Assembly: GCA_965203465.1 (NCBI GenBank)
Contig: CBDBCR010000001.1
Location: forward strand, 320,001-384,000
Origin: Nitrosopumilaceae archaeon
Lineage (GTDB): Archaea > Thermoproteota > Nitrososphaeria > Nitrososphaerales > Nitrosopumilaceae
DNA length: 64,000 bases
Direction of reading: 5' to 3'
The translations under genes were made by a program, and so were the position numbers. Below are positions 4,444 through 42,058 of the stretch, piece by piece (the first letter of the stretch is position 1; every line of letters starts with the position of its first letter). The notes below the pieces were generated by a model that was not told the origin of the DNA, ran no database searches, and was given only the letters and a program-made list of their open reading frames with translations.

Positions 4444-4646
4444 GGGACATCAACGACGTGCTGCCGCCGGTCCCGGACATGAAGTGGGGGGCCCTTACCA
4501 ACGTGCCGCCCACGCGCCGGCGCATACGCGAGATGGACAGGGTGTTCCCGGCCAACGGGCGCTGGCACACCGTCTTCGAGGACGCCGAAAAGGTGCACGT
4601 CGACGGGGCGGTGATCTGGAAAAAGAGACCAGAGTCGTGGACCTGA
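4440..4646 (+). CDS. Small hypothetical protein (68 aa)
   Basis: ATGA overlap with the upstream stop and abuts the rhomboid ATG, so operon-like coupling. Confidence 0.7.
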   Translation: MRDINDVLPPVPDMKWGALTNVPPTRRRIREMDRVFPANGRWHTVFEDAEKVHVDGAVIWKKRPESWT

Positions 4647-5399
4647 ATGATACCGCTGCGCGACGACACGCCGCACCCGCCCGGCTTCAAGCCGCGCCTC
4701 ACGCAGGCGCTCATCGTGGCCAACGTGGCCGTCTTTTTCTTGGAGGTGGCCGTCACGGGGCAGTTTCTCGACTTTACCAACCGCAACGCGGCGGTCATGT
4801 TCTACCAGTGGGGGGCCGTCCCCGCCTGCATAACGGGCCTGGACGCCGAGGTGCCCTGCCAGCCCGAGCCGTACCTGGGCCTGCTTACGTCCACGTTCAT
4901 GCACGGCGGGCTGCTGCACCTGGGGGGCAACATGCTGTTTTTGTGGATTTTCGCGGACAACATAGAGGCGAAACTGGGCCGCCTGAAGTTTTTGGGGGTG
5001 TACCTTGCCTGGGGGGTCGGCGCCGGCCTCATACATGTGGCCGCCGACCCGGCCAGCCCGATACCTGCGGTGGGTGCCTCAGGGGCCATATCGGGGGTGC
5101 TCGGGGCGTACCTGATGATCTTTCCGCGCGCCCGGATACTGACGTTCGTGTTTTTGGGGTTTTTCATGCAGATGATACGGATACCGGCAAAGTGGTTCCT
5201 TCCGTTCTGGCTGGTGTTTCAGAACTTGCTGCCCTTTTTCATAGGGGGCTTCGGGCTGGGCTTGGACGGCGGGGGCGGGGTGGCCTACATGGCCCACATC
5301 GGCGGGTTCGCCCTGGGCTTGGCCGGCGGGTACCTGTACAAGCGCACGCACACCGACCAGTTCACCTACGGGACGCGGTACGGGTGGAGGGGGGACTAG
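4647..5399 (+). CDS. Rhomboid-family intramembrane serine protease
   Basis: MIPLRD start, FMHGGLLHLGGNM, catalytic GASG, AHIGG; multiple TM helices. Confidence 0.93.
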   Translation: MIPLRDDTPHPPGFKPRLTQALIVANVAVFFLEVAVTGQFLDFTNRNAAVMFYQWGAVPACITGLDAEVPCQPEPYLGLLTSTFMHGGLLHLGGNMLFLWIFADNIEAKLGRLKFLGVYLAWGVGAGLIHVAADPASPIPAVGASGAISGVLGAYLMIFPRARILTFVFLGFFMQMIRIPAKWFLPFWLVFQNLLPFFIGGFGLGLDGGGGVAYMAHIGGFALGLAGGYLYKRTHTDQFTYGTRYGWRGD

Positions 5400-5414
5400 G
5401 CCGGACAGGCGCGG

Positions 5415-5786
5415 CTTTTCCGCTCTGCGGCCCCATTGAAGCGTTCTGTACATGTCCTCGATCGGCGTCTAGACTTTCCGCAACCGCTCTGCGGCCCCAT
5501 TGAAGCTACGACACTGTGGACACACCGCGGTATCTGGGCCGCATCTTTCCGCAACGTGTTGCGGCCCCATTGAAGATCGTTGTACGGATCCTTCAGGAAC
5601 ACCATCATCTCGCCTTCTGCAACTTTCAAGTTGCGGCTCCATTGAAGAGGCCCCTCTCCGAGCCCGAGTGCCTTCTGCTTGTTTTTCCCGCAACCCTGTT
5701 GCGGCCCCATTGAAGCGGCGGCTTGCTCTGGTCTATGGCGAGCACCGCGTCCGCCTTCCGCAGCCAAAGTTGCGGCCCCGTTGGAG
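5415..5786 (+). CRISPR. Degenerate orphan CRISPR array, 6 repeats / 5 spacers
   Basis: Repeats CTTTCCGCAAC-loop-GTTGCGGCCCCATTGAAG at 5415-5441, 5474-5505, 5545-5575, 5613-5647, about 5683-5715 and 5754-5786. Unique spacers of about 32-39 nt. The ATTGAAG 3' end indicates + orientation. Confidence 0.85.
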
Positions 5787-5949
5787 CTGGTTCGATCTGG
5801 CGTCCGAGCGGATCGTGCAGGTTTCATGGATGATCCGGCCGCGGGCCGATCTCTCGGCCCCGTGCGGCACGCGGCTGAAGGCCGGGCGCGGCGCGCGCTT
5901 TTGCAATCTGCGCGCCGCTATCTCCCCTTTGTCCCCAGAGTCGCCTTGT

Positions 5950-6298
5950 GCAGGCCGCACTCGAAACGGAAACCGCCGAGCAGGCCAGGCCAAACAGCAA
6001 AGTCCGTCTCGTCTCCGCTGCCCGAATCCGGCTTCAAAACCCCCATGTCAACGTTACGCAGGTTGTATGGCCGGCTCCCGCGTCCGCCAAGAAACGGATC
6101 TTGCCAAAACCGCATTCGAGCAGCGGCGGGCTGGCGACCGTGCCGTTGATCCCGATCGGCGCGCCGCCCACCTTCGTTGCTGTTTTCATACGCGTCCCGC
6201 TTGTTGCCTACACGCGGTTCTTTGCGGACCGCTAGAACAGCCGCCCTACCTCTTGCCTGTTGATGCGGTCTATGACCACGTTTCTCCTGTCGATCCCC
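5950..6298. repeat. Diverged direct repeat, copy 1 (partner 8749-8998)
   Basis: Shared blocks GCAGGCCGCACYCGAAACGGAAACCRCCGAGC, CTCGTCTCYGCYGCCCGAATC and GCTAGAAC..TGCCTGTTGATGCGG..CACGTTTCTCCYGTCGATCCCC. Confidence 0.75.
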
Positions 6299-6555
6299 TT
6301 CCTGTCGATCTCTTCCAAAAGTTCCGAAAAGTCCTCGTGGCTGGCGCGGACCTTTTTGCCGAGGACGGCTACGTACATGTCGCCGTAGTCTTTTTTGAGC
6401 GCCTCGCGGTTGTCCACCACCCACCCCGTATCGGCGCTGAATCTTGCAAGATCGGCGCATATCTGGTCGTAGTTTTTGGCGATCATCTCTTTCGCCTCTT
6501 TTACGTGCGGCAAGGACTCTCCTTCTCCCACGTACACGATGCTGGGACGGCTCAA
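6232..6555 (-). CDS. DUF5678-like small protein
   Basis: WVVDNREALKKDYGDMYVAVLGKKVRASHEDFSELLEEI matches the recalled DUF5678 pattern (L..Y.G.YVAV....V......EL). Confidence 0.65.
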   Translation of the reverse strand: MSRPSIVYVGEGESLPHVKEAKEMIAKNYDQICADLARFSADTGWVVDNREALKKDYGDMYVAVLGKKVRASHEDFSELLEEIDRKGIDRRNVVIDRINRQEVGRLF

Positions 6556-6726
6556 CCGGCATGCTTTCTTCGGGCCTGCATAAAAAACCGCCGGATTGCA
6601 GGGGGCATGGGCGCCGGCGCGAATTCGCAGGACGGCCCCCGACTAGGCACGGCTTGGCGGGCAGCCTCCGAGCCCGGTTCTTGCCGGTATCTGGAGGCAC
6701 AAATACGGACTTGCGGCATATCGGGC

Positions 6727-6927
6727 ATGGAATACGACGCAAGGGGCGTGCTCAAGATGCACGGCAACCCGTACACGGCGGTCGAGGCAATCATGCGCTG
6801 GGATCACTTGAGCTTGGACGAAGCCGTCGAGTCGGTGAGGGCCGCCGCCGGCATGGTCGAACAGAGGTACGTGGACAATTTCAGGCGGCTGCTGGCCAAA
6901 GCTGAACGCGCTTCCCGGTCTGGGTGA
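6727..6927 (+). CDS. 66-aa protein homologous to the N-terminus of the ART-like ORF at 45413-46231
   Basis: MEYDARGVLKMHGNPYTAVEAIMRWDHLSLDEAVESVRAA aligns with MGFDAKPVLEGYGGPNAVDAMTRWANLTREDAEKAVLAA. Confidence 0.65.
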   Translation: MEYDARGVLKMHGNPYTAVEAIMRWDHLSLDEAVESVRAAAGMVEQRYVDNFRRLLAKAERASRSG

Positions 6928-9487: not shown

Positions 9488-10637
9488 TAGTATCTTAGAT
9501 TGACTTTGGATAATTTTTGGCACGAACGATCAGGCCGTAAGATAGTCGTGCATCTTTATGATCTTGATGCCGCCGGATCTCAGAGCTTTCAACACCTCTC
9601 TCTTTATCTGCTCGATGTCGTCGAAAAACTGGTTGGCGATGTAGCGCTTGACTTCCCTCCACTGGGACTCGATCGGCGCAAGCTCCGGCGTGTACTTTGG
9701 CAGGAACCTCGCCACGATGCCGCCGTCGGTTCTCTCGTACAGCCTCCGGAACACGGCTTCGCTGTGGTACGAGGCGTTGTCCGTGTAGATCAGCAGCTTG
9801 CCCAGCTTTTTGTAGGCCCTCATGAGGAACGCCTCTACGTTCTTGGCGTTGCCCGTATCGCAGAACTCGAAATAGCTCTGGCCTCCGGCCGCCACGACTC
9901 CGAGCAGGGTGGCCCGGCCTTTCCGCCTGCCCGTGACGTCGACCCTGACCTGTTCGGCGCGCTTGCCTTTCCTCCTTTTCTTGCGGTACCATCCTTTCCG
10001 GACCACGCTCTGCATGGATACGTGCATTTCGTCAAAAGAAACGGCCAGATGCCCGCGCCCAGCGTAGATTGCTACGGTTCTGTGAGCTTTTTTTTTGAAA
10101 TCCTTGATTTCTGCCGGAGACGCCCCGCGTGCGTCGCGGGGGCGGGGCTTGATGTACACGAAGCCCAGCCGGTTCACCAGATCCCAGACGGAGTGGACAT
10201 GGTACTCTACGCCGAACTTTTTCTTGATGTGCGTCCTGATCAGCGGTATCGTCCAAGCACCCGCTCCGAGTCCGATCGCTGCGGGACCCGCTTCCAGATC
10301 CCGCTCGAGCGCCTTGAGCTGGCGCTTGGTGAGCTTGCACGCTGCCCCTTTGTTCTTTATGTCGTATCTCTTGTTCAGACCGTTCTTTTCGATGTTCCTT
10401 ATCCAGTTGGTCACCGTGGTGCGCGGAATGTCCAGGGCCTTGGATATTTCCACGATGGTCTTTCCCTGCTTCCTTTGTATGCATACCAGCAGCCTGCGTT
10501 CTGCTTTTGGATCTTTTTCCTTCCGATGCATGTCGCACAGGCGGGCCATGGTCACTTTGGGAAGAAACCTCCTCGCCATGGGGCCCCCCCGACGTGCCGC
10601 TATTTAGATCTTTGCCCAAAGTCAATCGAAGATACTA
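9488..10637 (-). mobile_element. IS630-family insertion sequence
   Basis: 22-bp terminal inverted repeats TAGTATCTT(A/C)GATTGACTTTGG with 1 mismatch; TA target duplication at 9486-9487 and 10638-10639. Confidence 0.92.
9530..10579 (-). CDS. IS630 transposase
   Basis: N-terminal HTH, WTIPLI winged-HTH, KPRP, DDE triad SFDEMH / TDNASYH / PELAPIESQW; in frame across the A9 run. Confidence 0.93.
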   Translation of the reverse strand: MARRFLPKVTMARLCDMHRKEKDPKAERRLLVCIQRKQGKTIVEISKALDIPRTTVTNWIRNIEKNGLNKRYDIKNKGAACKLTKRQLKALERDLEAGPAAIGLGAGAWTIPLIRTHIKKKFGVEYHVHSVWDLVNRLGFVYIKPRPRDARGASPAEIKDFKKKAHRTVAIYAGRGHLAVSFDEMHVSMQSVVRKGWYRKKRRKGKRAEQVRVDVTGRRKGRATLLGVVAAGGQSYFEFCDTGNAKNVEAFLMRAYKKLGKLLIYTDNASYHSEAVFRRLYERTDGGIVARFLPKYTPELAPIESQWREVKRYIANQFFDDIEQIKREVLKALRSGGIKIIKMHDYLTA

Positions 10638-11632: not shown

Positions 11633-12685
11633 GTGCGGTTCCCGAAAAAGACTGACGCCCAGTTCCACAAAATATTCACGAGCATCATCACGGCCGACAA
11701 AAACAACACGTACAAGCTGGCTCTGGCCCTATTCCTGCTAGAGCACAGCAAGTCCAAACCGCGATCCTGCAAGGTCAAATACGAGGAGATCGCCCGGTTT
11801 TTTCTGAGATACTATTGGTCTCACGTGTGCAAGTCAAAGCTCCGCCAGGGGCCGGCAAACCAGGTTCCGCTGGTGGTGAAAATAATACGGGGCGAGTTCA
11901 ACAAGGACGTCTATCCGATGGACTTTTCCGACCTCGAAAAGGCAGAGCCGTGCAAGGTGGAAAAATGTGTAGGCATGATCACGAAAAGGTGCTTCAAGGA
12001 CGTAGTGCCGCGCTTCCACAGGATCGACGGGCGCAACCAGTGCGTCTTTTACAAATACTGGTCCAAAAAATACCGCGACAAATCGTGCAACGAAAGGCCG
12101 ATCCTGCCCAAAGGAATCCTGATCAACCCCGCGGCCGCGAAATTCCTCAGAAAGAACTGCGTTCCCCTGCGCAAAAGCGTCATCCTGGAGTGGGTCAAGT
12201 TCCTCGAGACCAAAAACTTCGGGGCCCCCAACCTATCGAAAAAAGTGGAAGCCAAAGTCCGCGGCCCGCAAGACCAGCGCAAGTTCCTCACGCTGCTCAG
12301 CCCGTTTTCCAAAAAATGCTTCTACTGCCGCAAAAAACTAAAGTTCGACCGCGCTACCCACGTCGATCACGTCATCCCGTACGACTATATGGGCGAGACC
12401 GAGCTGTGGAACGCCGTGCTGGCGTGCCAGAGCTGCAACTGCACAAAACTCGACAGGCTGCCGCCCGAGAGGTTCGTCAAAGCCCTGATAACGCAAAACC
12501 GCAGATGCTACCACAAGATCGGGGACTTGCGCAAGTCCATCGACAGCATGCACGGGGGCCGCCACACAGCCCGCATTTCCAAGAGCGCGGCCGAATCCCT
12601 CAGAAAGAACATCTACTGGCACTACCGTAGCGCCGCCGACTCTGGCTACCCGCCTCTGAGAGCGTTCCCGCCAAGATCGGCGTGA
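11633..12685 (+). CDS. HNH endonuclease (NTYKxAL N-terminal family)
   Basis: NTYKLALALFLLE; CFYC..HVDHVIPY..LWNAVLACQSCN..K. Paralog of 32330-33763. Confidence 0.85.
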   Translation: MRFPKKTDAQFHKIFTSIITADKNNTYKLALALFLLEHSKSKPRSCKVKYEEIARFFLRYYWSHVCKSKLRQGPANQVPLVVKIIRGEFNKDVYPMDFSDLEKAEPCKVEKCVGMITKRCFKDVVPRFHRIDGRNQCVFYKYWSKKYRDKSCNERPILPKGILINPAAAKFLRKNCVPLRKSVILEWVKFLETKNFGAPNLSKKVEAKVRGPQDQRKFLTLLSPFSKKCFYCRKKLKFDRATHVDHVIPYDYMGETELWNAVLACQSCNCTKLDRLPPERFVKALITQNRRCYHKIGDLRKSIDSMHGGRHTARISKSAAESLRKNIYWHYRSAADSGYPPLRAFPPRSA

Positions 12686-12909: not shown

Positions 12910-14151
12910 CTAGCCGAACGGCACTTCCCGGTATTCCAACTTGTCCTCTTCCAGCATATTTTTCAGCTTGTCCGGTATCTGGGGCGAGACCAAGAAGAAC
13001 CTCGCCCCTTCCATGCCCGTGACTTTTTTGTAGTCGTCCCGGTACCCGGATATCTGGCGCTTGTCCCTGAGCGCCGCCGCCGGATACTTTAGCTCCAGCC
13101 CGACCGCCCTGCCCGAACTGTCCCTGCACAAAAAGTCGATGCTGCCGGTGGGTAGCCGGTATTCGGACGACTGCAACAGCAGGCCGTCTTCGATTAGATT
13201 CAAGTTGGCCCTTATGTATTCTTGGTAGTCTTTTTCTTTCTTGATGGCCCCGTCCAGCTGCTTCTGCAGCCGGTCCGGGTTGTCTACATAGCTGTAGAGC
13301 CACTCGTGGTCGACGGACATGTAGAACGCGGCGACTTCCCTGCGTTCTGCGATGCCTTCCGAGACCAGTTTGTTCAGGAATTTGTTGCAGGCGGACGTGG
13401 GGATGCCCTCCGAGACGATGAGATCCTCTTCCGCGTCTGGAGCCAGCCCGCCTTTTAGCAGCTTTATCAGCTTGCACTGCCAGTTCAGCGTCTTGAGCTG
13501 CCTTGAGTCAAACAGGGACGCCAGCATGTTGATCCTTTCTGCCATGTCGTAGGTTCCGGCAAGCTGCACCACCTTGTCCCTGAGGCTTTCGAACTCTTGC
13601 CTCGGCACGCTTTCTCCCAGCATCTTTGCGGCGCGTTCGATGATCTCTTTGTTGGCCTGGTCTATCATCTCGTCGCGCGTCCTATGCAGGCCCTCGGTCG
13701 TTTCGTGCGTAAAACTGTTCATCTTGTTTTCGGTACGCGACTCTAGATCTGAAAAACCCGTGGAGAGGCTCTGCATGCTCTGCTGCATCATCGACATCTC
13801 GCTGGCGTGTGGAAGCTCGGTCTTGAGTTCGGTAAGATCGGAGCAGGTTGTTTTCAGCTGTTCGCCGATTCTCGACACGTCGTACTGGATCTTTGGGTCT
13901 ATGCCCCGGAGGGGGCGGATGGCGTTTTCGAGTTCGGTAAGATCGGAGCAGGTGGTTCTCAGCCGTTCGTCTATCCTCGACACGTCGTACTGGATCTTTG
14001 GGTCTATGCCCCTGAGCGGCTGGAGGTTCTTTTTGATCTCCGAGATGCCCCTGCGCTGCAGGACGTAGAATATGGAGCAGATGACCACCGTCGCAATCAT
14101 TGCCGCAAGCACGGCTGCCCCTTCTGCTTGCAGCGCCATGCCTCCGAGCAT
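12910..14151 (-). CDS. Membrane-anchored coiled-coil protein with C-terminal NucS/EndoMS-like PD-(D/E)xK nuclease domain
   Basis: TM helix AAVLAAMIATVVICSIFYVL; long helical region; EKDYQEYIRANLNLIE..EY..GSIDFLCRD..GLELK..QISGY. Start at 14151 or 14139. Confidence 0.8.
   Translation of the reverse strand: MLGGMALQAEGAAVLAAMIATVVICSIFYVLQRRGISEIKKNLQPLRGIDPKIQYDVSRIDERLRTTCSDLTELENAIRPLRGIDPKIQYDVSRIGEQLKTTCSDLTELKTELPHASEMSMMQQSMQSLSTGFSDLESRTENKMNSFTHETTEGLHRTRDEMIDQANKEIIERAAKMLGESVPRQEFESLRDKVVQLAGTYDMAERINMLASLFDSRQLKTLNWQCKLIKLLKGGLAPDAEEDLIVSEGIPTSACNKFLNKLVSEGIAERREVAAFYMSVDHEWLYSYVDNPDRLQKQLDGAIKKEKDYQEYIRANLNLIEDGLLLQSSEYRLPTGSIDFLCRDSSGRAVGLELKYPAAALRDKRQISGYRDDYKKVTGMEGARFFLVSPQIPDKLKNMLEEDKLEYREVPFG
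13825..14020. repeat. 105-bp (35-aa) intragenic tandem duplication
   Basis: PLRGIDPKIQYDVSRI(D/G)E(R/Q)L(R/K)TTCSDLTEL occurs twice; GAGTTCGGTAAGATCGGAGCAGG at 13825 and 13930. Confidence 0.9.
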
Positions 14152-14320
14152 CCAAGCGCGCCGATCGCGTGAGCCATAAATTGGTATCCATTGGCTGTTC
14201 TGTAGGCACTGTTGCGAGTTCGGGGCTAGTTTCTGACTCGACACGGCCGGCCCGATCGCCCCGGGCCCCTGTTCCTGCCGGTATCCGGAGGCACGAATAA
14301 GGGCTTGCGGAGGGCCAGTC

Positions 14321-14467
14321 ATGGCATGCGACGCCAGAACGGTGCTAGAAATGTACGGAGCCGCACATGGTGGCCGAGGCGGTGAGGGCGGCCGCTTCGA
14401 TCAGAGATACGTGGACAACGTCGGGCGGCTGCTGGCCGAAGCTAGACCTGTTGGCCGGCCCGCGTGA
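14321..14467 (+). pseudogene. Internally deleted paralog of 6727-6927
   Basis: MACDARTVLEMYG..DQRYVDNVGRLLAEA versus MEYDARGVLKMHG..EQRYVDNFRRLLAKA. About 100 bp upstream and about 25 bp downstream are also homologous. Confidence 0.7.
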
Positions 14468-17025: not shown

Positions 17026-19507
17026 TTGGCAAAAAAAGACTCGGTGGATCAGTACACCCACCCGGACTCCACGCGGACGAACAACCCGCCGGCGGGACTG
17101 GTCACACTGGAGACCGACCCGGACAGGCCCAGCAAGCACTACTCGCACGATCCCCGCCTTGATCCGCACCTCCAATGGTCCGGCAAACGGGAAAACTCCG
17201 AGTTTGAAGTGGATACCGTATCCCTACACGTGCACGAGACAGTTGATCCTGCCACCATTTTGGAAAAAGCAATGCAGCTGAGGCGGGGGGGGGGGTGGAT
17301 CCCAGCAAACGCTGTTTGGGTATTTCGACGAGCGGCTCTCTTTGCGTCATGCAGTAGAGTTCTACAAACACGATCAAAACTGGTCTAACCGACTGGTCGC
17401 CGGAGATTCCTTGCTGGTCATGAATTCGCTGTTGCAGAAAGAAGGCATGGGGGGCAAAGTACAGATGATCTACATAGACCCCCCGTACGGAATAAAGTAC
17501 AGTTCCAACTTTCAACCGTTCGTAAGCAAGCGCAACGTAACGGATGGCAAGGATGCCGATCTTACACAAGAGCCTGAAATGATAAAGGCGTTCAGAGACA
17601 CGTGGGAACTGGGAATACACTCGTACCTGTCATACTTGCGAGACAGGTTGCTGCTGTCCAAACAGCTACTTGCGGAGAGCGGCAGTGTGTTTGTGCAGAT
17701 TTCAAGCAAAAACCTCCACCACGTGTTGGAAATCATGAGCGAAGTGTTCGGTAGCGAGAATTTTGTCAACGTAATAAGCTATAGAACTACATCTGGCGAT
17801 ACTGCTGCGCTATTGCCATCAATGGTGGATTACCTCGTTTGGTTTGCTAAGGACAAAAAACACATCAAATTTCACCAAATTTTTCTCGACAAAGAGGTAG
17901 GCGCGAGTCGTGCATACAATTATGTCGAAGAACCAAACGGCACGATTAGAAAAATACACAAAGAAGAAATTAAAAACCCAAATTTGATCCCAAAAAACTG
18001 TCGAATATTCACTATGGCTGATTTGCATCATGCAGGTTTTCGTGAAACCACTACCTTTGAATTTGAGTTTAAAAGAAAAAAATTCCATCCAGGAAGCAAC
18101 CATCATTGGAAGACAAACAAGAAAGGAATGGACAGGTTGAAGAAAGCAGAGCGCCTTGTTCTAAGCACAAATACTCTACGTTACAAGAAATACTTTGGTG
18201 ACTTTCCGGTAACACATTTGGGCAACATGTGGATCGATACTGGAGGCGCAGCCAACAAAAAATACGTAGTTCAGACATCGCCCAAGATCATACAACGTTG
18301 CATGTTGATGGTTACAGACCCGGGTGACTTGGTGTTTGATCCTACATGCGGAGGCGGCACTACTGCATTTGTAGCAGAGCAGTGGGGAAGAAGGTGGATC
18401 ACATGTGATACGTCAAGAGTCGCTTTGGCATTAACAAAACAGAGATTAATGACTGCCGTCTATAATTATTATAAACTACACAAACCAGACGAAGGTGTCT
18501 CTTCTGGGTTTCTATACAAAACCGTGCAACACAAAACATTGCGGTCGATCGCAAATAATGAACCGCCAGATCTTGTGACGTTGTATGACAAACCAATCAC
18601 CCAAAGCAACAAAATGAGAATCTCTGGCCCGTTCACCATCGAGGCGGTCCCGGCGCCAACAGCAAAGTCGCTTGACGTTCTGTCCGCTGACCCGGAAGAC
18701 GATCCCACGACTGCGCCGGGCGCGTCCTCGCACCAGCAGCAATGGCGCGACGAACTGCTGAAGACCGGGATACGCGGAAAGTCCAACCAGAGAATCGAAT
18801 TCACCAGGGTGGAACCCCATCCTGCCACAAAGTGGCTCCACGCAGACGCAGAGACCAAAGACAAACCGAAGCGCGCGATGGTCTCGTTCGGCCCGGAGCA
18901 CGCCCCCTTGGAGCAGCGCCAGGTAGAGAACGCGATCAAGGAGGCGCAAACCCTGGTCCCCCCGCCCGAGATGCTGATATTCGCAGCGATGCAGTTTGAT
19001 CCCGAGGCCGCAAAGGACATCGACGGGTTGAACTGGCCGGGCGTCACAACGCTCAAAGTCGAGATGAACAAGGATCTTTTAACCTCGGATCTGAAAACCA
19101 AGCGCGCGAGCAACGAGTCGTTCTGGCTGATGGGCCAGCCCGACGTGGAGGTCGGAAAGACCGGCGACAAGCACGTGGTGACAGTCAACGGATTCGACTA
19201 CTACAACACGAAAACCGGAGAGATCGAATCGGGCGATTCTTCAAAGATCTCCATGTGGATGCTCGACGAGGACTACGACGGCAGGAGCGTGTACCCGAAG
19301 CAGATATTCTTCCCCATGGAAGGCGAGGACGGGGGGTGGGTCAAGCTTGCCAAGACGCTACGGGCCCAGATCGACGCGGATCTCATACACAAGTACCACG
19401 GAAAGACGTCGATCCCGTTCGAGGCGGGGCCCAACAAGCAGGCCGCCGTAAAGATCATCGACGACCGGGGGATTGAGTCGCTAAAGGTAATCCACCTCGA
19501 AAAATGA
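17026..19507 (+). CDS. mod: Type III R-M methyltransferase (Mod), frameshifted at a G11 tract
   Basis: IYIDPPY (motif IV), VFDPTCGGGTT (motif I). The N-terminal ORF from 17026 joins the 17342 frame (open back to 17282) if 17285-17295 is G10, giving about 826 aa. Confidence 0.88.
17285..17295 (+). repeat. Poly-G tract (G11) at the mod frameshift
   Basis: aggc GGGGGGGGGGG tggat. Confidence 0.9.
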
Positions 19508-32329: not shown

Positions 32330-33763
32330 TCACGGACGGGATCCGGCAAACTCCCACCTGCCAAAGCCACATTCTCCGCATATGCTGTAGTGGTGGCGTA
32401 TTTCTTCCTCCCATGTCTTGGTTCCGGCTACAAGCCGGCGCAGGGATTCCTTCATCTCGTTCAAGCCGGCGCACTCTTCGTTCCGCGTTATGAGCCCTGA
32501 CAGGTACGTGTCCTTGGGCAGGGAGTTGCTCTTGTCCAAGTTGCATTCGGGGCATGCCAGAACCAAGTTCCACATGTTGTCGTCGACCATGTACGACCAC
32601 GGAATAAAGTGGTCTACGTGTATGCAGTCTGGTTTGAGTCTGTTTTTGCAATAAAAGCACTTTTTCGCATGCTTGTAGAGAACGTCTTTGTATTTTTTGA
32701 GGGAGCCCTGCTTTTTGATCCCGTTTATCTTGGCGGCCAGCTTGGGCATGCCGTGGTTTACCCTTTCCAAATACAGCACCCACTCGGCCAGCAGCGCACG
32801 GGTGAGCAGCTTGTGATTGTAGCGCAAGAACGCGTGGGCTTCGGGATGGATGGTGATCACCTGCAGGTCGTCATCATAGTCGTAGAACATGTTGACGCTG
32901 GCGGTCGTGCTGCCGTGCCTGACGTGCTGGAGCCGGGGCACCACCATGCCTTTTTTCTGCCTGTCGTGCCCGAACACGTCCGCGAGGATCCTCTGTTTGG
33001 CGTCTCTCTTGCGCTTGGCGCCCGCGCGCCTGAAACTTGCCGACTGTGCGTCGCCGAACACTTCTTCGAGTATGGTTATGATCCTAGGCTGGCGTTTGGT
33101 ATGAAAGTCCTGCTTCATCCTGAACTTGTATTTTTGATACCAGTAGTGCCTGAGGAACTCTCCGGCCAGATACTCGTACTTTATCTTGCGTGCGGATCCG
33201 TCAGGGGCGTGGCGCCTGCAATAATCCAGCAGCGTCTTGCACAGGGCGAACTTGTAGGTGTTGTCCCTGCGCCCCTCTGATATTATGGCAGTGAACGTCT
33301 TCCTCATGTTGCGCTCCGTCCGCTCTATCGGCTCCGGCTCGGGCCAGCAGTCCTTGACTCTAGCAGACGGCCTGTCTACTCGCATGGACGGATCCGACAG
33401 CCTGTACAGATCGGTGCGTCTGTCGCTCCAGTCGGACAGCGTGCCGCTCTTTCGCAGTCTGTTCAATATCTCGCTGGTTATGCCCATCAGCTCATTAGAC
33501 TTGCGCCTCGGCCCCCACATGGTGGAGGGCAGGCGCATCTCTTCGGCCAGCCGCCTGTCCAGATCTGCCTTTCTGTGCCACACGGGCTTGGAACGCCAAG
33601 CCTGCTGGGCCGGGCGGCCTCGGTGATTCGTGCCCAGCTCGTCTATGGTTCTGCCGTTGACGGTCAGCCCGTACAAGAGCAGCTTTGCCATGTTCTCCCT
33701 CTGGCGGCTGTCGGGCATCCTTTGTATGTAGGCAACCGAGGCGGAGCGTGGTTCCGACGCCAA
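32330..33763 (-). CDS. HNH endonuclease with extra N-terminal winged-helix-like domain
   Basis: DNTYKFALCKTLLDY; CFYC..IHVDHFIPWS..MWNLVLACPECN..KS. Confidence 0.85.
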   Translation of the reverse strand: MASEPRSASVAYIQRMPDSRQRENMAKLLLYGLTVNGRTIDELGTNHRGRPAQQAWRSKPVWHRKADLDRRLAEEMRLPSTMWGPRRKSNELMGITSEILNRLRKSGTLSDWSDRRTDLYRLSDPSMRVDRPSARVKDCWPEPEPIERTERNMRKTFTAIISEGRRDNTYKFALCKTLLDYCRRHAPDGSARKIKYEYLAGEFLRHYWYQKYKFRMKQDFHTKRQPRIITILEEVFGDAQSASFRRAGAKRKRDAKQRILADVFGHDRQKKGMVVPRLQHVRHGSTTASVNMFYDYDDDLQVITIHPEAHAFLRYNHKLLTRALLAEWVLYLERVNHGMPKLAAKINGIKKQGSLKKYKDVLYKHAKKCFYCKNRLKPDCIHVDHFIPWSYMVDDNMWNLVLACPECNLDKSNSLPKDTYLSGLITRNEECAGLNEMKESLRRLVAGTKTWEEEIRHHYSICGECGFGRWEFAGSRP

Positions 33764-34103: not shown

Positions 34104-35800
34104 TCAGTACTTGCCCAGTTTCCGCCTGCGCTTGGGCTCGGAGATCAGTTTCTGGTTTTTGCGCACCACGGCGCCGTACCTTTCCAACAAAAACTCCAGG
34201 CGTTCGTAGTCGTCTTTGAACGGCTTGCTGCGGTACAGGCGATCCGCCGCCTTGTCCAGTTTTCCGTGCGCTTTTCGGAGATCCGCCGACATGAGATCGG
34301 GATCGTATAGGTCGGCTAGCGTCTGGCTCGGATGGCTGGCGCGCGCGTTCAGGACGCCTCGGGCGTGCGGCTCTAGCGCATTCAAATCAGCATCCGGCAC
34401 CGGGAATGTGTTGTAAACCAAGCCTGCTGAATATCTGTAGTCCCCCTTTAGTCTGCCGCCCACCTTCGCGAGCCACGCCATGTGCATCTTCGACGTTATC
34501 AGCCCGAACAGGCCGAGCGTGGAGTCTTGCACGATCATGGTGCTGTCGCTTGGGATTACCGGTGGTTCCGCGTACCCGATAGGCACGTATTCGCGCCTCT
34601 CGGAACTTATGCGCGGTATCCGCAGGAACGGCTTTTCCGGCAGGACGTTGAGGTGGTACCGCGTGGGGGTCTCTGCCAGTTTTCGGGATCCGGGAGACCT
34701 GCTTTCCGACCGGTATCGTTTTACGGCCTCCACGCGTTTCATAACTTCCGGCATCGCCTTCAGCTCGGACGGCTCGGCGCCGTGCAGTGCCAGTATCCAC
34801 CGCTCCCCGCCGTTGATGAACTCCCTGGATCCTATGTACGGGCGCAGAAACTTGGCTGCCCCCGGCTCCTTGGCCAGAAAGCCGTCCTTTTCGCCCGCCG
34901 CGAAGATGTAGTGCCCGCCGTCTATGGGCTTGGAGCCCATTACCAGCTTGGGCAGGCCGTTGAGCCGCCTGGCAGACTCTGATACGAACGGCGCGTCGCC
35001 GCCGAAGCCTATCAGGTACGGCGATATGTGGCGCGGGTTCTCCTCCACTTTTCCGTCAAAGAGCCTCTTGCGGGCGACGGCGCCCTTTCTGGCCAGCCCG
35101 ATCACTACCACGTGCACGTGCGCCTTGCCGGCCGCGTCCGAATCCCACTCGAATGACTTGTGCGCGAAGGCGATCTCGTGCTTGCCGAGTATGGCAGGCC
35201 ACAGTTGTCCCACCTGCTCGCCCTGCGTCACGCTGTTGGTCGAGACGAACCCTATCTTGGCGCCCGGCGCGTACTCGACCGACTTGAAGAACCACGCGGC
35301 CACGTAGTCCGGCGTGCCCCCGCCCCCGCCGGCGGCCCTTGCGACCTGGGCGCGCTACCGCGCGGACATCACCTTGGCGCCGAGGAACGGCGGGCTGTTC
35401 AGTATGTACGAGCACTCTTCTGCGGGCAGCGCCTCGTTCCAGTCCGTCTCGAGCGCGTCGGCGTTGAGTATGTTGGCCCGCCCCTCTAGCGGGATCCGCA
35501 CGTACGAGTCGCCGTACACGCGGGATATCTCGTTGTTGGCAAGGTGGTCCGTCATCCACATGGCCGTCTCTGCTATCTTTGCCGAAAAGCCGTCCAGCTC
35601 TATGCCGTAGAACTGCCCGACGCCGATCCTCGGCATGCCGGCCTGATCGAAGCGCTTGGAGCGCGGATCCCGTATCTCCACCATCGCCTCGAGCTCCAGC
35701 CTGCGCAGCTCCCTGTACGCGACTATCAGAAAGTTCCCCGAGCCGCACGCCGGATCGAGGAACTTGAGGCCGCCCAGCTTTTCCTGGACCGGGTGCATGT
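34104..35800 (-). pseudogene. MmeI-like (Type IIL) R-M methylase pseudogene, 5'-truncated with an internal amber stop
   Basis: FLDPACGSGNFL, STNSVTQGEQV, F.WDS.A.GKAHVHVV, SSERREYVPIG, YRYSAGLVYNTFP, TLADLYDP. In-frame TAG at 35355-35357; NPPF decayed to NSPPF; nuclease N-terminus absent. Confidence 0.85.
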
Positions 35801-36019
35801 AATCTTCGTCTGCTGGGAATTTTCTAGAGCACAAGGACGCGCTCCTACGCACTACGTACAGGCTCGTGCGCGACAGGAGAGATGGTGGCTGCCAGGGGGG
35901 TCAGCGCAGGGACAGCAGACGCGTATTACAGCACACCTCACGAGGATTTGTCGGAATCTTTGGAGTTAGGCAACTAATTCGCGGGCAATCGTTATAGCGA
36001 CGGCGCCGCCCGCGCCGGC

Positions 36020-37755: not shown

Positions 37756-37850
37756 CTTTCCGCATTGCGGCCCCATTGAAGCACCGAGTTTTACCAGGAT
37801 AACGATGTCGGAATCACCTTTCCGCAACTATCAAGTTGCGGCTCCATTCA
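37756..37850 (+). CRISPR. Mini CRISPR-like array: 2 degenerate repeats and one 36-nt spacer
   Basis: CTTTCCGCATTGCGGCCCCATTGAAG (37756-37781), spacer 37782-37817, CTTTCCGCAACTATCAAGTTGCGGCTCCATTCA (37818-37850). Same family as 5415-5786. Confidence 0.75.
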
Positions 37851-38039
37851 GTCAGGCCCGCTAACTCCTAGTTAGTTGCCCAACTCTCTTGTGGAAGGGG
37901 TCGCCTCGCGCCACCTTGCGTCACCCGTGCTTGATTCTCGGGTGGAAAGCGCTCCCTAGCATCGGCAACGGCCCTGCATCGGGGGTTAGGCAACTACCAA
38001 CTCCCGAATTCTTATATTCTTACTGGCGCACGCCCGCCC

Positions 38040-41000
38040 GTGCCGGATACCCGCGTGGAAGGACTGCTTGGCATGTTCGGCGTGGATCCCTCCAAGAGGC
38101 AGAGGCTGGACTTTGGCAGGGGCTGGGAGTGCTACGGCGTGCAGCGGGCAGACGGGACGGATCCTCACGTGCAGGTGGTGCTGGCAGTTAGGGGCCCCAA
38201 GAATCTGGCCGAGCTCAAAAAGGCGATCACGGCAGACTGCATCGTGGCTTTTGTACCCAAGAACGCGCTGTTTCTGAGGGCGCTCGGGGAGAGCTGCTCC
38301 GTAGTGCTGGAAAGCGGCGACGACTATGAGCGCGTCGGAGCGGTGCTGCAGTCCTGCAGTCTTTCCGGCTCCAAGCTCGGAACGGAGTACCTAGGTGGCG
38401 TACGCGAGGCGATCAGGGCCATACCCGTATCCGAGATGCCCGGGATCGTCAACCGCGGCGTCTTTTCCAACCACTACCTAAAGAGCCGGATCTGGGACGA
38501 CCTGCAGCACGACATCGGCCCAGAGGCAGAGCGCGTCGGGGCCGCGATGGGCTCCAGCGCCAAGGCCGTGCTGGCCGCGCTTGGATGGAAGGTCGGCGAG
38601 GCGCCTGGCAGGACGCACAGGTTCGATGGGGCCTCGATAATAGTCGTGCCGAACCGGGACTTGAGCGTCCGCACGCGCGACGACGTGGCCCCCAGCTATA
38701 CCGCTGTGGCCGAACTCCAGCATTCGCAGTGGGTGATCTTGACCAACGGGACGGCGTGGCGGCTGTACACCAGCAGGGTGTCCGCGTCTACCACCAACTA
38801 TTTCGAGATAGACCTTTCGACCAAAAAGGCGGTTCTGGCCAGGTACTTGGCGGCCGTCTTCGGCGCCTCCTCGTATTCGGGCCCGGATCCACAGATCGGT
38901 GTGTTTTTCGAGCAGTCCCTGCTCAAGGCCGGGACGCTACAGGACAACCTGCGGGACAAAATCCTGCGCCCAGACGGCCTGTTCCTGGACATCGTCAAGG
39001 GGGTTCTGAATCACGACATGAAGAAACAGTTCTCCGAACAGGACTTGGAGGGAGCAAAAGAGACCGCCCTGGCGGTCATGTACCGCGTCTGGTTCGTGCT
39101 GTACGCCGAGTCGCGCAACCTGTTGCCGGTGCGCCATTCGGGGTACACAAAGATATCGCTCATGTCGCTGAGAGCAAAGCTGGACGGGTACGAGGGCGAT
39201 CCTGAAGGGGACGGCTGCTGGAGGCACCTGCTGGACCTTTTCGGCAGGATAAAAGACGGCAGCCCGGAGCACAACCTGCCAAAGTACGACGGAGACCTGT
39301 TCAAGAGGAGGGCCGACATCGAGCAGATCGACGTGCGCAACAGGTTCATCGTAAGGGCCCTGCGGGATCTGTTCGAGACCGACGGCGAGCCCGTGGACTA
39401 CGGGGACTTGGGGGTGCGACACCTAGGCAACATTTACGAGTCGCTTCTGTCGTTCAGCGTGCGGCAGGCCAAAAGAGACGTAATGCTGCTCTCTGACCGG
39501 AAGGGCGTACGCGAGGTCGCTTCCAAGGCAGAATCTACCTATTCGTACAGGAAAAACGACCTGTACTTGGCATCAAAGGGCGGGATAATGTCCCGCAAGA
39601 TGTCTGCCAGTTTTTACACGCCGGAGGAAATAGTCAAGTTTCTGGTGAGGCGGGGGCTGGAGCCCCTGTTTCGCGAGCGCGAGGCCAAGGTACCGGAGGA
39701 TGTCGCCAGATACAAGAGCAAGCGATCCGAGCAGAACCGGCGCGCCTGCATCGACAGGTTGCTGGATCTGCAGGTGCTGGATCCGGCCATGGGCTCGGGG
39801 CACTTTCTGGTCGAGGCGCTAAACCAGATCACGCAGTGGGCCACCGAGGTGCTCAACCGCAACCCGGGCCACCCGCTGGTGGCAGAGATCGAGCGGGACA
39901 GACAGACGGTCATCGAAGAGCAGAAAAAGGAGGGAATCAACATAGACCACAGCCTGTTGACGGCCGACGTTCTGTTAAAGCGCCGTGTCATGAAGCGGTG
40001 CATCTTTGGGGTGGATCTGAATGGGCTGGCAGTAGAGCTGGCCCGGCTCTCGCTGTGGCTAGACTCTTTTGCGATCGGGATGCCGCTTACATACCTAAAC
40101 CACCACATCAAGCACGGCGATTCGACTATCGGCTCCTGGCTCGGGGATCTACAGAGCCCCAAGAACCGTTCGCTGGACGATTGGACGCAAGATCTGGGCA
40201 AATACGGCGGGATGCTGGAGAGGGTCAGCGACAGCCCGGACATCACGGTGTCGCAGGCAACAGAGAGCAAAAAAAGCCACCAAGAATACGAGGAGCAGAT
40301 CAGATCCCACCGGCTCATGTTAGACGCGCTTACCGCGTTCAAAATAGAGCCGGAGCTGCTGCCCAAGAAGGCCAAGGCGGCTGACTATCTAGCGAAGCTG
40401 GGCCTTTCGCGGGACGACAAAGAGATCGACGCGGTACAATCAAAGATCCAAAAGCTGGCGTGCAGGTACCGTTTTTTCCACTGGGAACTGGAGATGGTGG
40501 ACGCCTTCACCGACTCGCGGCGCGGGTTTGATCTCGTGGTAGGCAACCCCCCGTGGGAAAAAAACAAACCAGCCCAGGACGAGTTTTTCGCGCCGCACGA
40601 TCCAACTTTCAAACACCTCAAACCTGACACGAAAAAGAAAAAGAGAACCAAAGAGCTGCTCAAAAACCCCCGCCTGCGGAGCTTGCACGAAGCGTACATC
40701 CAGTCGTTCCAAGACAAGGCTGCTTTTTACAAGACCTACGAGCTACAGGGTCCCGGCGACACGGATCTGTGGCAACTGGTGCTGGAGCGCATGCTCAATT
40801 TGGTCTCGGCCGGCGGAACAATCTCGGTATTGGTGCCGTCGCAGATCCTTTCAAACACGGGATCCGCAGACATGCGGAGGAAATTGCTCAACATGGACAT
40901 AAGGCAAGCGTACGTATTCGAAAACCGGAAAAAAATATTCGACATTCACTCGAGCTATCGGTTTGCGTTGCTGACCGTGAGGAACCAGCCCGGCCCCGAC

Positions 41001-42058
41001 GAGTTTAAGGCAGCGTTTTATCTGCATCATTTGTCTTCCCTCAACGACGGTTCTGCCGAAAGCACCAAATTCGTGGCTTGCTCCAAGCAGACCATAAGCA
41101 AAATCTCCCCCGAAGATTTGACGGTGCCGGAAGTCCCCACCAAATCATACGCGCTGCTCGCAAAACTATCAGAACGCCCCACATTGGGATCCATGTCGAG
41201 CGATGGATGGCGGGTATCTCTTGCTCCGGGCTTTCACGATGCTAAGGACGCAGACCTGTTCCGGGAAGACGGCAAGGGTTGGCCCGCACTAAAGGGAAAA
41301 GATATCCACCAGTTCAATCCTGCTTTTGCTGCGCCTGATTTCACCGTGGACCGATCCGACGGACTGCGCAGGCTGGGCAAAAAGAGGGTATATGTAGGAC
41401 ACTGCCCGAAATTCCACGAATCGTACATGTTTGTATTCCGAGACATCGCGCGCTCTACCGACATGAGAACTATGATATCGTCAATTATACCTCCGCATAC
41501 GTTTCATACAGCCTCATTACGTAGCGTTATATTGACTCGTAACCACCTTGCTATGTTTGGTGACTTACACAACCGCAAACTTGCACACTTGGCTGGAATA
41601 ATTAACTCCATACCGTTCGACTTTATCGCAAGGGCGAAAACTCAAATGCACATAGCAACCATATTCAAGCACCTGTTCGTCCCCCGCCCCTCAAAACACG
41701 ACGGGAAAATAGCCCACTTGGCAGCCGTTTTGACTGCGGCGTTACGTGGGGGGGGGATCCGTCGTATTTTGGTGCGTTTGCAGATTCGTTTGGCATCAAA
41801 CCCGAGCATCTGCCTCCTGCACGCCGCATAGATATTACCGCCAGACTCGACGCGCTAGTCGCGCACGCCTACGGCCTGTCCAAAGACGAGTACCGGACGG
41901 TGCTGGACTCGTTCAAGTTTGGCGAGGATCCGTCCCTGCGCGAAGCAGACGAAGCGGACTGGTCTGACAACCGGGTGCTGAGAAAATTCTACGGCGAGGT
42001 ACGCAAGGCGGCCATGCCCCACTTTGAGGAGATCGCCAAGGAGGATGGCCACAAATGA
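38040..42058 (+). CDS. Type IIG (Eco57I-like) restriction-modification adenine methyltransferase, frameshifted at a G9 tract
   Basis: WVILTNGxxWRLY, LGNIYESLL, FYTP, VLDPAMGSGHFL, FFHWELE, GNPPW. The alternative frame after 41756 gives RLDALVAHAYGLSKDEY..LDSF and ends in a TGA overlapping the helicase ATG; G10 gives about 1339 aa. Confidence 0.88.
41748..41756 (+). repeat. Poly-G tract (G9) at the methylase frameshift
   Basis: ttacgt GGGGGGGGG atcc. Confidence 0.9.

Follow-up and report, generated by a model that had tools for sequence, protein, structure and literature searches.

Six unlike repeats in a stray type I-G CRISPR array of a Nitrosopumilaceae archaeon: a probable decaying remnant altered at the hairpin tip

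Layout of the array

The 64,000-nucleotide (nt) stretch of a Nitrosopumilaceae archaeon analysed here, below called the window, carries a short CRISPR array directly 3' of a rhomboid-family protease gene. Sequence reading and a repeat finder placed six direct repeats (R1 to R6) and five unique spacers on the plus strand at window 5416–5787. No two repeats are the same, their lengths range from 27 to 36 nt, and their start-to-start spacing is 64–72 nt. A first-pass annotation of the window had described six all-different repeats, and its reading of their interiors (in order TCT, AACCGCTCT, AACGTGTT, AACTTTCAAGTT, AACCCTGTT and AGCCAAAGTT) was reproduced. As it had also stated, the array lies close behind the rhomboid stop, starting about 16 nt after the stop at 5399. 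The features of the locus, with hairpin stems in base pairs (bp) as predicted by RNA folding, are:

4647..5399, plus strand: rhomboid-family protease gene (Pfam PF01694, E 1.4e-29; G+C content at third codon positions, GC3, 0.88)
5416..5442, plus strand: repeat R1, 27 nt; core CCGC-TCT-GCGG, 4-bp stem, -4.2 kcal/mol; linker CCCC and handle ATTGAAGC intact
5443..5474, plus strand: spacer 1, 32 nt; single copy in the genome
5475..5506, plus strand: repeat R2, 32 nt; core CCGCAA-CCGCTCT-GCGG, 5-bp stem, -6.2 kcal/mol
5507..5545, plus strand: spacer 2, 39 nt; apart from itself, matched in the genome only by short stretches attributable to chance
5546..5576, plus strand: repeat R3, 31 nt; both 7-nt arms kept, GT in place of the six central bases, 6-bp stem, -7.1 kcal/mol; last base A
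5577..5612, plus strand: spacer 3, 36 nt; without genomic target
5613..5648, plus strand: repeat R4, 36 nt, near-canonical with three substitutions and last base A; 8-bp stem, -9.3 kcal/mol
5649..5683, plus strand: spacer 4, 35 nt; a T5 run at its end (5682–5686) extends into R5
5684..5716, plus strand: repeat R5, 33 nt; both 7-nt arms kept, centre CCT, 7-bp stem, -9.6 kcal/mol
5717..5753, plus strand: spacer 5, 37 nt; genomic matches of at most 23 nt only
5754..5787, plus strand: terminal repeat R6, 34 nt; centre CAAA, 7-bp stem, -10.2 kcal/mol; arm change A>G, handle degenerate (GTTGGAGC)

The pattern CCGC..GCGG is present in five of the six repeats, the exception being R4 with CTGC. The 3' handle motif CCCCATTGAAG is present in four, R4 having CTCC and R6 CCCCGTTGGAG. 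To this extent stem and handle are largely kept, as the first-pass annotation had put it; the stem itself is shortened in R1, R2 and R3.

The parent type I-G system

In a profile search of the window no cas family reached its cut-off, in agreement with the earlier statement that no cas gene could be recognised in the 64 kb. The genome assembly (2.26 Mb in four contigs, 65% G+C, archaeal AmoA encoded) does contain a type I-G CRISPR system, located on contig C4. The 15-nt motif of the repeat 3' part has 75 genome copies at two or fewer mismatches, compared with five for the reversed control, and most of these copies lie in one array on the minus strand at C4:45113-48933. This main array has 54 repeats, of which 53 are perfect 36-nt copies and one is 5'-truncated. 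The canonical unit consists of a CCTT tail, an 8-bp hairpin with a 4-nt loop (CCGCAACT ATCA AGTTGCGG), the linker CCCC and the handle ATTGAAGC. Genes for Cas4g/Cas1g (NF049935, 686.8 bits) and Cas2 (29.8 bits, cut-off 24.5) adjoin the array, and two I-G effector modules by it together encode two Cas3g, two Csb2, two Csb1/Cas7g and one Cas3-extension protein. A Cas8g2 match at the locus is weak (95 bits against a cut-off of 125). One of the Csb2 genes occupies C4:38779-40167. Genome-wide, Csb2 and Cas1 were found on C4 only, Cas1 as a single copy; a stand-alone Cas6 was not found, and Cas3-core matches on the contigs C1, C2 and C3 all stayed under the cut-off. The whole locus (C4:27730-51055; L033/L035) is composite, with two effector modules in tandem and a four-repeat degenerate mini-array between them.

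R4 is 91% identical to the canonical repeat over 35 nt, and the other repeats have 17–19 identical 3' nt and the 5' arm in common with it. Judged by this homology, the window repeats can be taken to descend from the 36-nt repeat family of the main array. The resemblance to subtype I-G (I-U) repeats noted in the first-pass annotation is thus explained by the I-G locus and its 54-repeat array; the search for cas loci and a canonical repeat which it had advised led to C4 for both. With a complete-looking I-G system on that contig, the array is an orphan by position in the window only. Spacers of the main array are 34–39 nt long, and the G+C content of the spacers is 0.60 in the window array and 0.59 in the main array. 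The window sequence occurs in sequencing runs labelled as sponge or marine metagenome; together with AmoA, these labels point to an ammonia-oxidising archaeon associated with sponges as the host.

Position of the changes within the repeats

The repeats were anchored on their 3' ends and then aligned to the canonical 36-nt repeat. Changed cells make up 22 of 36 at the six central positions and 21 of 180 everywhere else (Fisher p 1.2e-9, alignment cells not being independent of each other). Outside the core they are found in the 4-nt tail (7/24), the 5' arm (5/42), the 3' arm (4/42), the linker (1/24) and the handle (4/48). None of the 72 cells of linker and handle is a gap, and every gap outside the 4-nt tail borders the core. 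Substitutions affect five of the 72 linker and handle cells and two of the 84 arm cells. The length of the core is altered in five of the six repeats, and every change of repeat length touches it. These figures confirm that variation is concentrated in the hairpin interior, unlike uniform decay. It had been assigned to the loop; it is centred there, but reaches into the stem, which in R1, R2 and R3 has 4, 5 and 6 bp compared with the canonical 8 bp.

Insertions and deletions (indels) are generally several-fold rarer than substitutions. Here the indels are too many for the low substitution level, so that the core must mutate faster, since selection only removes changes. R1 and R2 have an identical derived 3' part of 23 nt, and R2 corresponds to R1 with one additional 6-nt unit, CCGCAA, bounded by CCGC direct repeats. 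The common derived core suggests that at least one repeat duplication took place after the core had changed. No single deletion, tried by hand, turned the canonical centre of this species or of a related one into the core of R3, R5 or R6 (GT, CCT and CAAA). Canonical repeats of related species agree with that of this genome except for the first two nucleotides and the central six, which read TATCAA in this genome, GATAAA in G003, TCTCAT in G070 and TGTCAA in G088.

Independent contigs

Contigs in the Logan collection from other studies show no difference to the window over 5479–6307 (X4) and 5613–5799 (X12), and two contigs of X3 show none over 5477–5716 and 5687–6315. R1 and spacer 1 are covered outside the source genome only by the X8 contig, which represents a strain of about 6.5% divergence and joins the rhomboid gene to R1–R3. 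Compared with window 4600–5555, this contig has 62 other letters and 13 gap letters; the indels listed lie in spacer 1 (seven single-base insertions) and in the 15-nt gap that precedes R1, with none listed within R1 or R2. Two putative deletion joints, 5442>5698 in X3 and 5548>5688 in X4, are each seen in one contig, with sides of 26 and 29 nt and 85% likeness; they may stem from other arrays and count as weak.

Long-read assemblies can err at hairpins and homopolymers, and two bacterial arrays of the repeat family, from metagenome-assembled genomes (MAGs), carry many homopolymer-type variants that are possibly errors. The contigs from three other studies, however, are identical across the covered parts of R2–R6, whole or in part, and therefore the differing cores are not an assembly artefact. 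The core changes also differ from homopolymer length errors. That sequencing or assembly errors at hairpins gave rise to the differing cores is thus hardly credible.

Hairpin geometry and Csb2 processing

The type I-G system of Thioalkalivibrio sulfidiphilus is the one I-G system studied biochemically. According to PMC9638904, Csb2 binds the hairpin of the 36-nt repeat there and cuts 4 nt 3' of a 7-bp stem; an 8-nt 5' handle results, and the protein remains bound to the hairpin. Going by the predicted folds, all six window repeats would fit this published substrate geometry of hairpin, 4 nt and 8-nt handle.

Other remnants and the wider repeat family

Further diverged copies of the repeat occur outside the main array of this genome:

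Window 37756..37853 (C1:357756), plus strand: second mini-array, two repeats with a 35-nt spacer
C1:715101-715200: ectopic two-repeat array
C1:805288: ectopic half repeat
C4:34337-34553: four-repeat array between the two cas modules, the first repeat with a compensatory arm change

The first repeat of the second mini-array has a clean, apex-centred 9-nt deletion that leaves CCGCA joined to TTGCGG. Its second repeat has a canonical hairpin and a decayed handle, and has the change GCGGCTCC in common with R4. A CAP-domain gene flanks the mini-array on one side, an Eco57I-like restriction-modification gene on the other. Shortened cores are therefore not confined to the array behind the rhomboid gene, being present in two other ectopic remnants of the genome (C1:357756 and C1:715168).

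Shortened cores were also sought in 201 genomes of the family, the outer CCGC/GCGG and a perfect 3' part being required. They were found in four, with six such repeats in this genome, two in G088 and one each in G105 and G170. That outer pairs and 3' part are kept in these hits follows from the search, which demanded both. G088 has an orphan array of three repeats with rewritten cores, and the hit in G170 is a solitary remnant, CCGC-A-GCGG. In G105, the main array has aberrant and partly truncated repeats at its leader end, and one of them has lost a single base of the loop. Aberrant leader ends were seen in two active arrays, that of the present genome (G000 C4:48780-48960) and L138 (G105:C2:2348300-2350000). 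The units there include 5'-truncated repeats, repeats only 1–8 nt apart and one internally deleted partial repeat, which suggests imprecise integration by the Cas4g/Cas1g machinery.

In bacteria, the 3' part GCGGCCCCATTGAAG is joined to varied hairpins in at least 121 stretches, with 98 distinct cores in 80 loci. The cores of R1, R2, R3 and R5 are absent from these 80 wider-family loci, among the matches listed, and from the 200 other genomes of the family; an import of the repeats was rejected on these grounds. Large arrays of the same 3'-motif family with many altered repeats are found in a Phycisphaerales MAG and a Planctomycetaceae MAG (L153 and L170). Their 5' halves are missing or altered, or the loops vary in homopolymer length; either sloppy integration or long-read errors may have caused this.

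Spacer targets

The spacer search advised by the first-pass annotation was carried out against the genome and phage records, and in IMG/VR for one spacer. None of the five spacers has a target in the own genome, and comparison of the whole array with 50,697 phage records revealed no spacer target. The first 24 nt of spacer 3, the only spacer compared with the IMG/VR viral contigs, had no exact match there, sponge viromes being poorly covered.

A CreA-like seed test was applied to spacer positions 1–5 and 7–11. For the five spacers and that of the second mini-array there were no seed matches in C1:320000-332000 or C4:27000-52000. Genome-wide, 0–13 matches per spacer were counted, where about four are expected by chance (a rough estimate for a 10-base seed, with no shuffle control). 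The spacers of the mini-array at C4:34337-34553 had no seed match in the cas locus.

A self-target was found for the main array. Its spacer 7 matches window 13631–13665 on the plus strand perfectly (35/35), within the open reading frame (ORF) 12910–14322 on the minus strand, which encodes a NucS C-terminal nuclease domain and lies in a low-GC island. For another I-G system a TTN protospacer-adjacent motif (PAM) is reported in PMC9638904. The flanks of the self-target are ..TTTGCG on the 5' side and ATG on the other, neither of which equals TTN, and the lack of this PAM may explain why the self-target is tolerated.

Transcription and genomic neighbourhood

The crRNA-sense strand (crRNA, CRISPR RNA) of the array is also the strand of the rhomboid gene. 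ORFs overlapping the array have a GC3 of about 0.6, without coding signature or Pfam match. Upstream of none of the five ectopic loci is there similarity to the leader of the main array, and window 5000–5900 contains no all-A/T hexamer as a promoter-like element; the earlier statement that an AT-rich leader is missing was correct. From the layout, read-through from the rhomboid gene would be the only plausible source of transcription. None of 97 orthologous rhomboid loci (17 from relatives and 80 from metagenomes) carries an array downstream, and so the array is not an old conserved feature. The best metagenome relatives of the rhomboid protein are at most 69% identical, and same-genus genomes are 66–68% identical at the DNA level.

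Directly downstream, window 5931–6900 is a multi-copy segment, with six or more further genomic copies at 72–83% identity. It contains a small DUF5678 ORF (6232–6555, minus strand, E 2.5e-5), and contigs from other samples break there; the segment may represent a small toxin-antitoxin-like or mobile gene family. From about 8000 to 42000 the window is occupied by a defence and mobile island with low-GC patches, which includes:

9530..10579, minus strand: IS630-like DDE_3 transposase
11633..12685, plus strand: HNH endonuclease
17342..19507, plus strand: N6_N4 methylase
32330..33763, minus strand: HNH endonuclease
34104..35852, minus strand: MmeI-like gene, split
38040..41831, plus strand: Eco57I-like methylase-endonuclease

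Interpretation

We consider the array to be a decaying, leaderless ectopic remnant of the genome's own I-G system which was shaped by slippage or template switching centred on the hairpin, and give this reading a probability of roughly 0.6. What the data show is that the array is homologous to the I-G array, where its changes lie and what form they take, that they are stable from strain to strain, and that a leader is missing. Copying errors would be the mechanism, and the array would no longer be in use. Most of the differences between the six repeats would then stem from the palindrome's tip acting as a mutational hot spot. In copying across a DNA hairpin, slippage or template switching could remove the apex and inner stem or replace them with other sequence, either during replication or during gap filling when spacer uptake duplicates a repeat. 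Such apex events would by their nature spare the outer arms as well as all sequence 3' of the hairpin, so that no selection is needed for the kept stem and handle. Template switching at a quasi-palindrome could even transfer a change between the two arms and in this way mimic compensatory evolution, as perhaps in the CCGCACC/GGTGCGG arms of G088.

The first-pass annotation had offered selection for processing in trans and hairpin-driven slippage deletions as explanations. A kept outer stem and handle with a variable interior is equally expected from processing selection and from copying errors at the apex. What favours errors is the excess of core indels, the loss of 2–4 stem pairs in half of the repeats, and the footprints of slippage or apex deletion in R1/R2 and in the second mini-array. 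Stems of 4, 5 and 6 bp in R1–R3 are not what selection for the 7-bp Csb2 hairpin predicted. Of the two explanations, hairpin-driven slippage or deletion therefore fits better with the changes of core length, the additional unit in R2 and the indel excess. The two are not strictly exclusive.

A number of observations weigh against decay by copying errors, and most of them fit an array that is still used. Simple slippage alone cannot be the mechanism, because the GT, CCT and CAAA cores need more than one simple deletion. The array, identical in three studies and present in a strain of about 6.5% divergence, is not being lost quickly. In the predicted folds, the 3' base of the hairpin lies 12 nt from the repeat end in all six repeats, as in the published Csb2 geometry. 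Linker and handle changed little (the five cells mentioned above), and the only degenerate handle is that of R6, which no crRNA would need. Both arm substitutions, C>T in R4 and A>G in R6, are wobble-preserving: in the sense RNA the pairs become U-G and G-U, respectively. The tail and the six central bases, variable in the window repeats, are also the positions at which the canonical repeats of related species differ. As the array faces the same way as the rhomboid gene, read-through transcription is possible. In the alternative reading the array would be transcribed in this manner and cut by Csb2 in trans, with the closing pairs, linker and handle under purifying selection, while the hairpin interior drifts; the guides would be frozen immune guides or regulatory ones. 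The I-G genes on C4 look intact, and the G+C content of the spacers is close to that of the main array. Canonical cores in the wider GCGGCCCCATTGAAG family (80 bacterial loci listed) measure about 14–19 nt, a size range that includes R2, R3, R5 and R6. According to PMC8501985, strongly degenerated creA repeats can still serve as Cas6 substrates. Selection, however, has no power to raise the indel rate of the core, and crRNA 1 would require cutting of R1, the repeat with the shortest and weakest of the three reduced stems. A promoter-like element is missing and a T5 run precedes R5; self or phage targets and seed matches near the array or the cas locus were not found, and the locus has no array in other species. 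We regard continued use as possible, though improbable.

Somewhat more doubtful still is a pair of ideas, namely that the array amounts to a naturally occurring mutational scan of a Csb2 substrate kept working by selection, or that the core was rewritten at each repeat duplication during spacer uptake. Under the former, nothing beyond the closing CCGC/GCGG pairs, a linker of 4 nt and a handle of 8 nt would be needed, and leaderless frozen guides, transcribed with the rhomboid gene, would be loaded in trans into the I-G effector. Under the latter, which is prompted by the common derived core of R1 and R2 and by the aberrant, truncated units next to the leaders of two active arrays, the array would record error-prone adaptation and not post-mortem decay.

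A mobile element might have carried or left the mini-array, using the host I-G machinery against competing elements. The array is situated at the edge of the defence and mobile island, about 300 nt before the multi-copy DUF5678 family begins; the island holds the transposase, the HNH endonucleases and the methylase and restriction-modification genes listed above, and the gene matched by spacer 7 of the main array is 8 kb away. In contigs of other strains, however, the array continues into the rhomboid gene at one end and into the right flank at the other, neither integrase nor attachment repeats nor a tRNA were found, the repeats are far more degenerate than expected of a working element-borne array, and no target was found. 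Such an origin appears quite unlikely. We give even less credence to a CreTA- or CreR-like regulatory mini-CRISPR, in which seed-only pairing would repress the promoter of a neighbouring toxin or of cas genes. Degenerate repeats that keep the processing determinants are the hallmark of creA genes (PMC8501985, PMC9458426 and bioRxiv 10.1101/2023.03.10.532045). The window array, however, has five spacers instead of one, and the cas locus is far off on a different contig; no search was aimed at toxin genes. The absence of seed matches in both regions searched, together with genome-wide counts near the rough chance level, weakly refutes this possibility.

Comparison with known systems

Isolated degenerate arrays are the closest kind among known systems; CRISPR arrays away from cas genes were reportedly surveyed by Shmakov and colleagues in 2020. 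Like them, the window array is short, leaderless and distant from cas genes, its repeats are homologous to those of a cas-linked array, its last repeat is degenerate, and its spacers had no target in the collections searched. It departs from them in that all repeats differ, and do so by apex-centred length changes instead of scattered substitutions. Spacing and repeat homology of a type I-G array are present; leader and adjacent cas genes are absent. With the T. sulfidiphilus system, as described in PMC9638904, the parent repeat has the length of 36 nt, the 7–8-bp hairpin, the 4-nt linker and the 8-nt handle in common. Here, however, the host is an archaeon, the hairpin is shortened or rewritten in all but one of the six window repeats, and the geometry is that of predicted folds.

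The creA and CreR elements resemble the array in having ectopic, diverged repeats which keep the parts for Cas6-type processing. According to the three sources cited above, they consist of one guide between two repeats, lie by cas genes or a toxin, and pair by their seed with a nearby promoter; none of these features of guide number, location and seed pairing was found for the array. The Rfam family RF01330 (CRISPR-DR16) likewise has a hairpin followed by GGCCUCAUUGAAaC. It matches on the plus strand, only at R5 (21.6 bits) and R1 (18.1 bits), both under the gathering score of 35.

Slippage and template-switch mutation associated with hairpins and quasi-palindromes is said to have been described by Ripley and by Lovett. 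The array has in common with such mutations the indels and rewrites centred on an inverted repeat, the complementary arms and, in R1/R2, a deletion between short direct repeats. Three of the window cores, however, are not accounted for by a single simple event. We know of no demonstration of quasi-palindrome mutation for CRISPR repeats or in this archaeal lineage.

All in all, the array appears fairly ordinary, a stray degenerate CRISPR relic with one curious and reproducible core-centred pattern. In palindromic repeats, copying errors centred on the hairpin can by themselves give a conserved outer stem and handle with a variable interior, and a conserved stem and handle should not be taken to prove that processing is under selection. 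Should the array be processed nevertheless, its six natural variants would define the minimal recognition element of Csb2, and it would give a first example, in a thaumarchaeal symbiont, of guides that lack a leader and are coupled to a gene.

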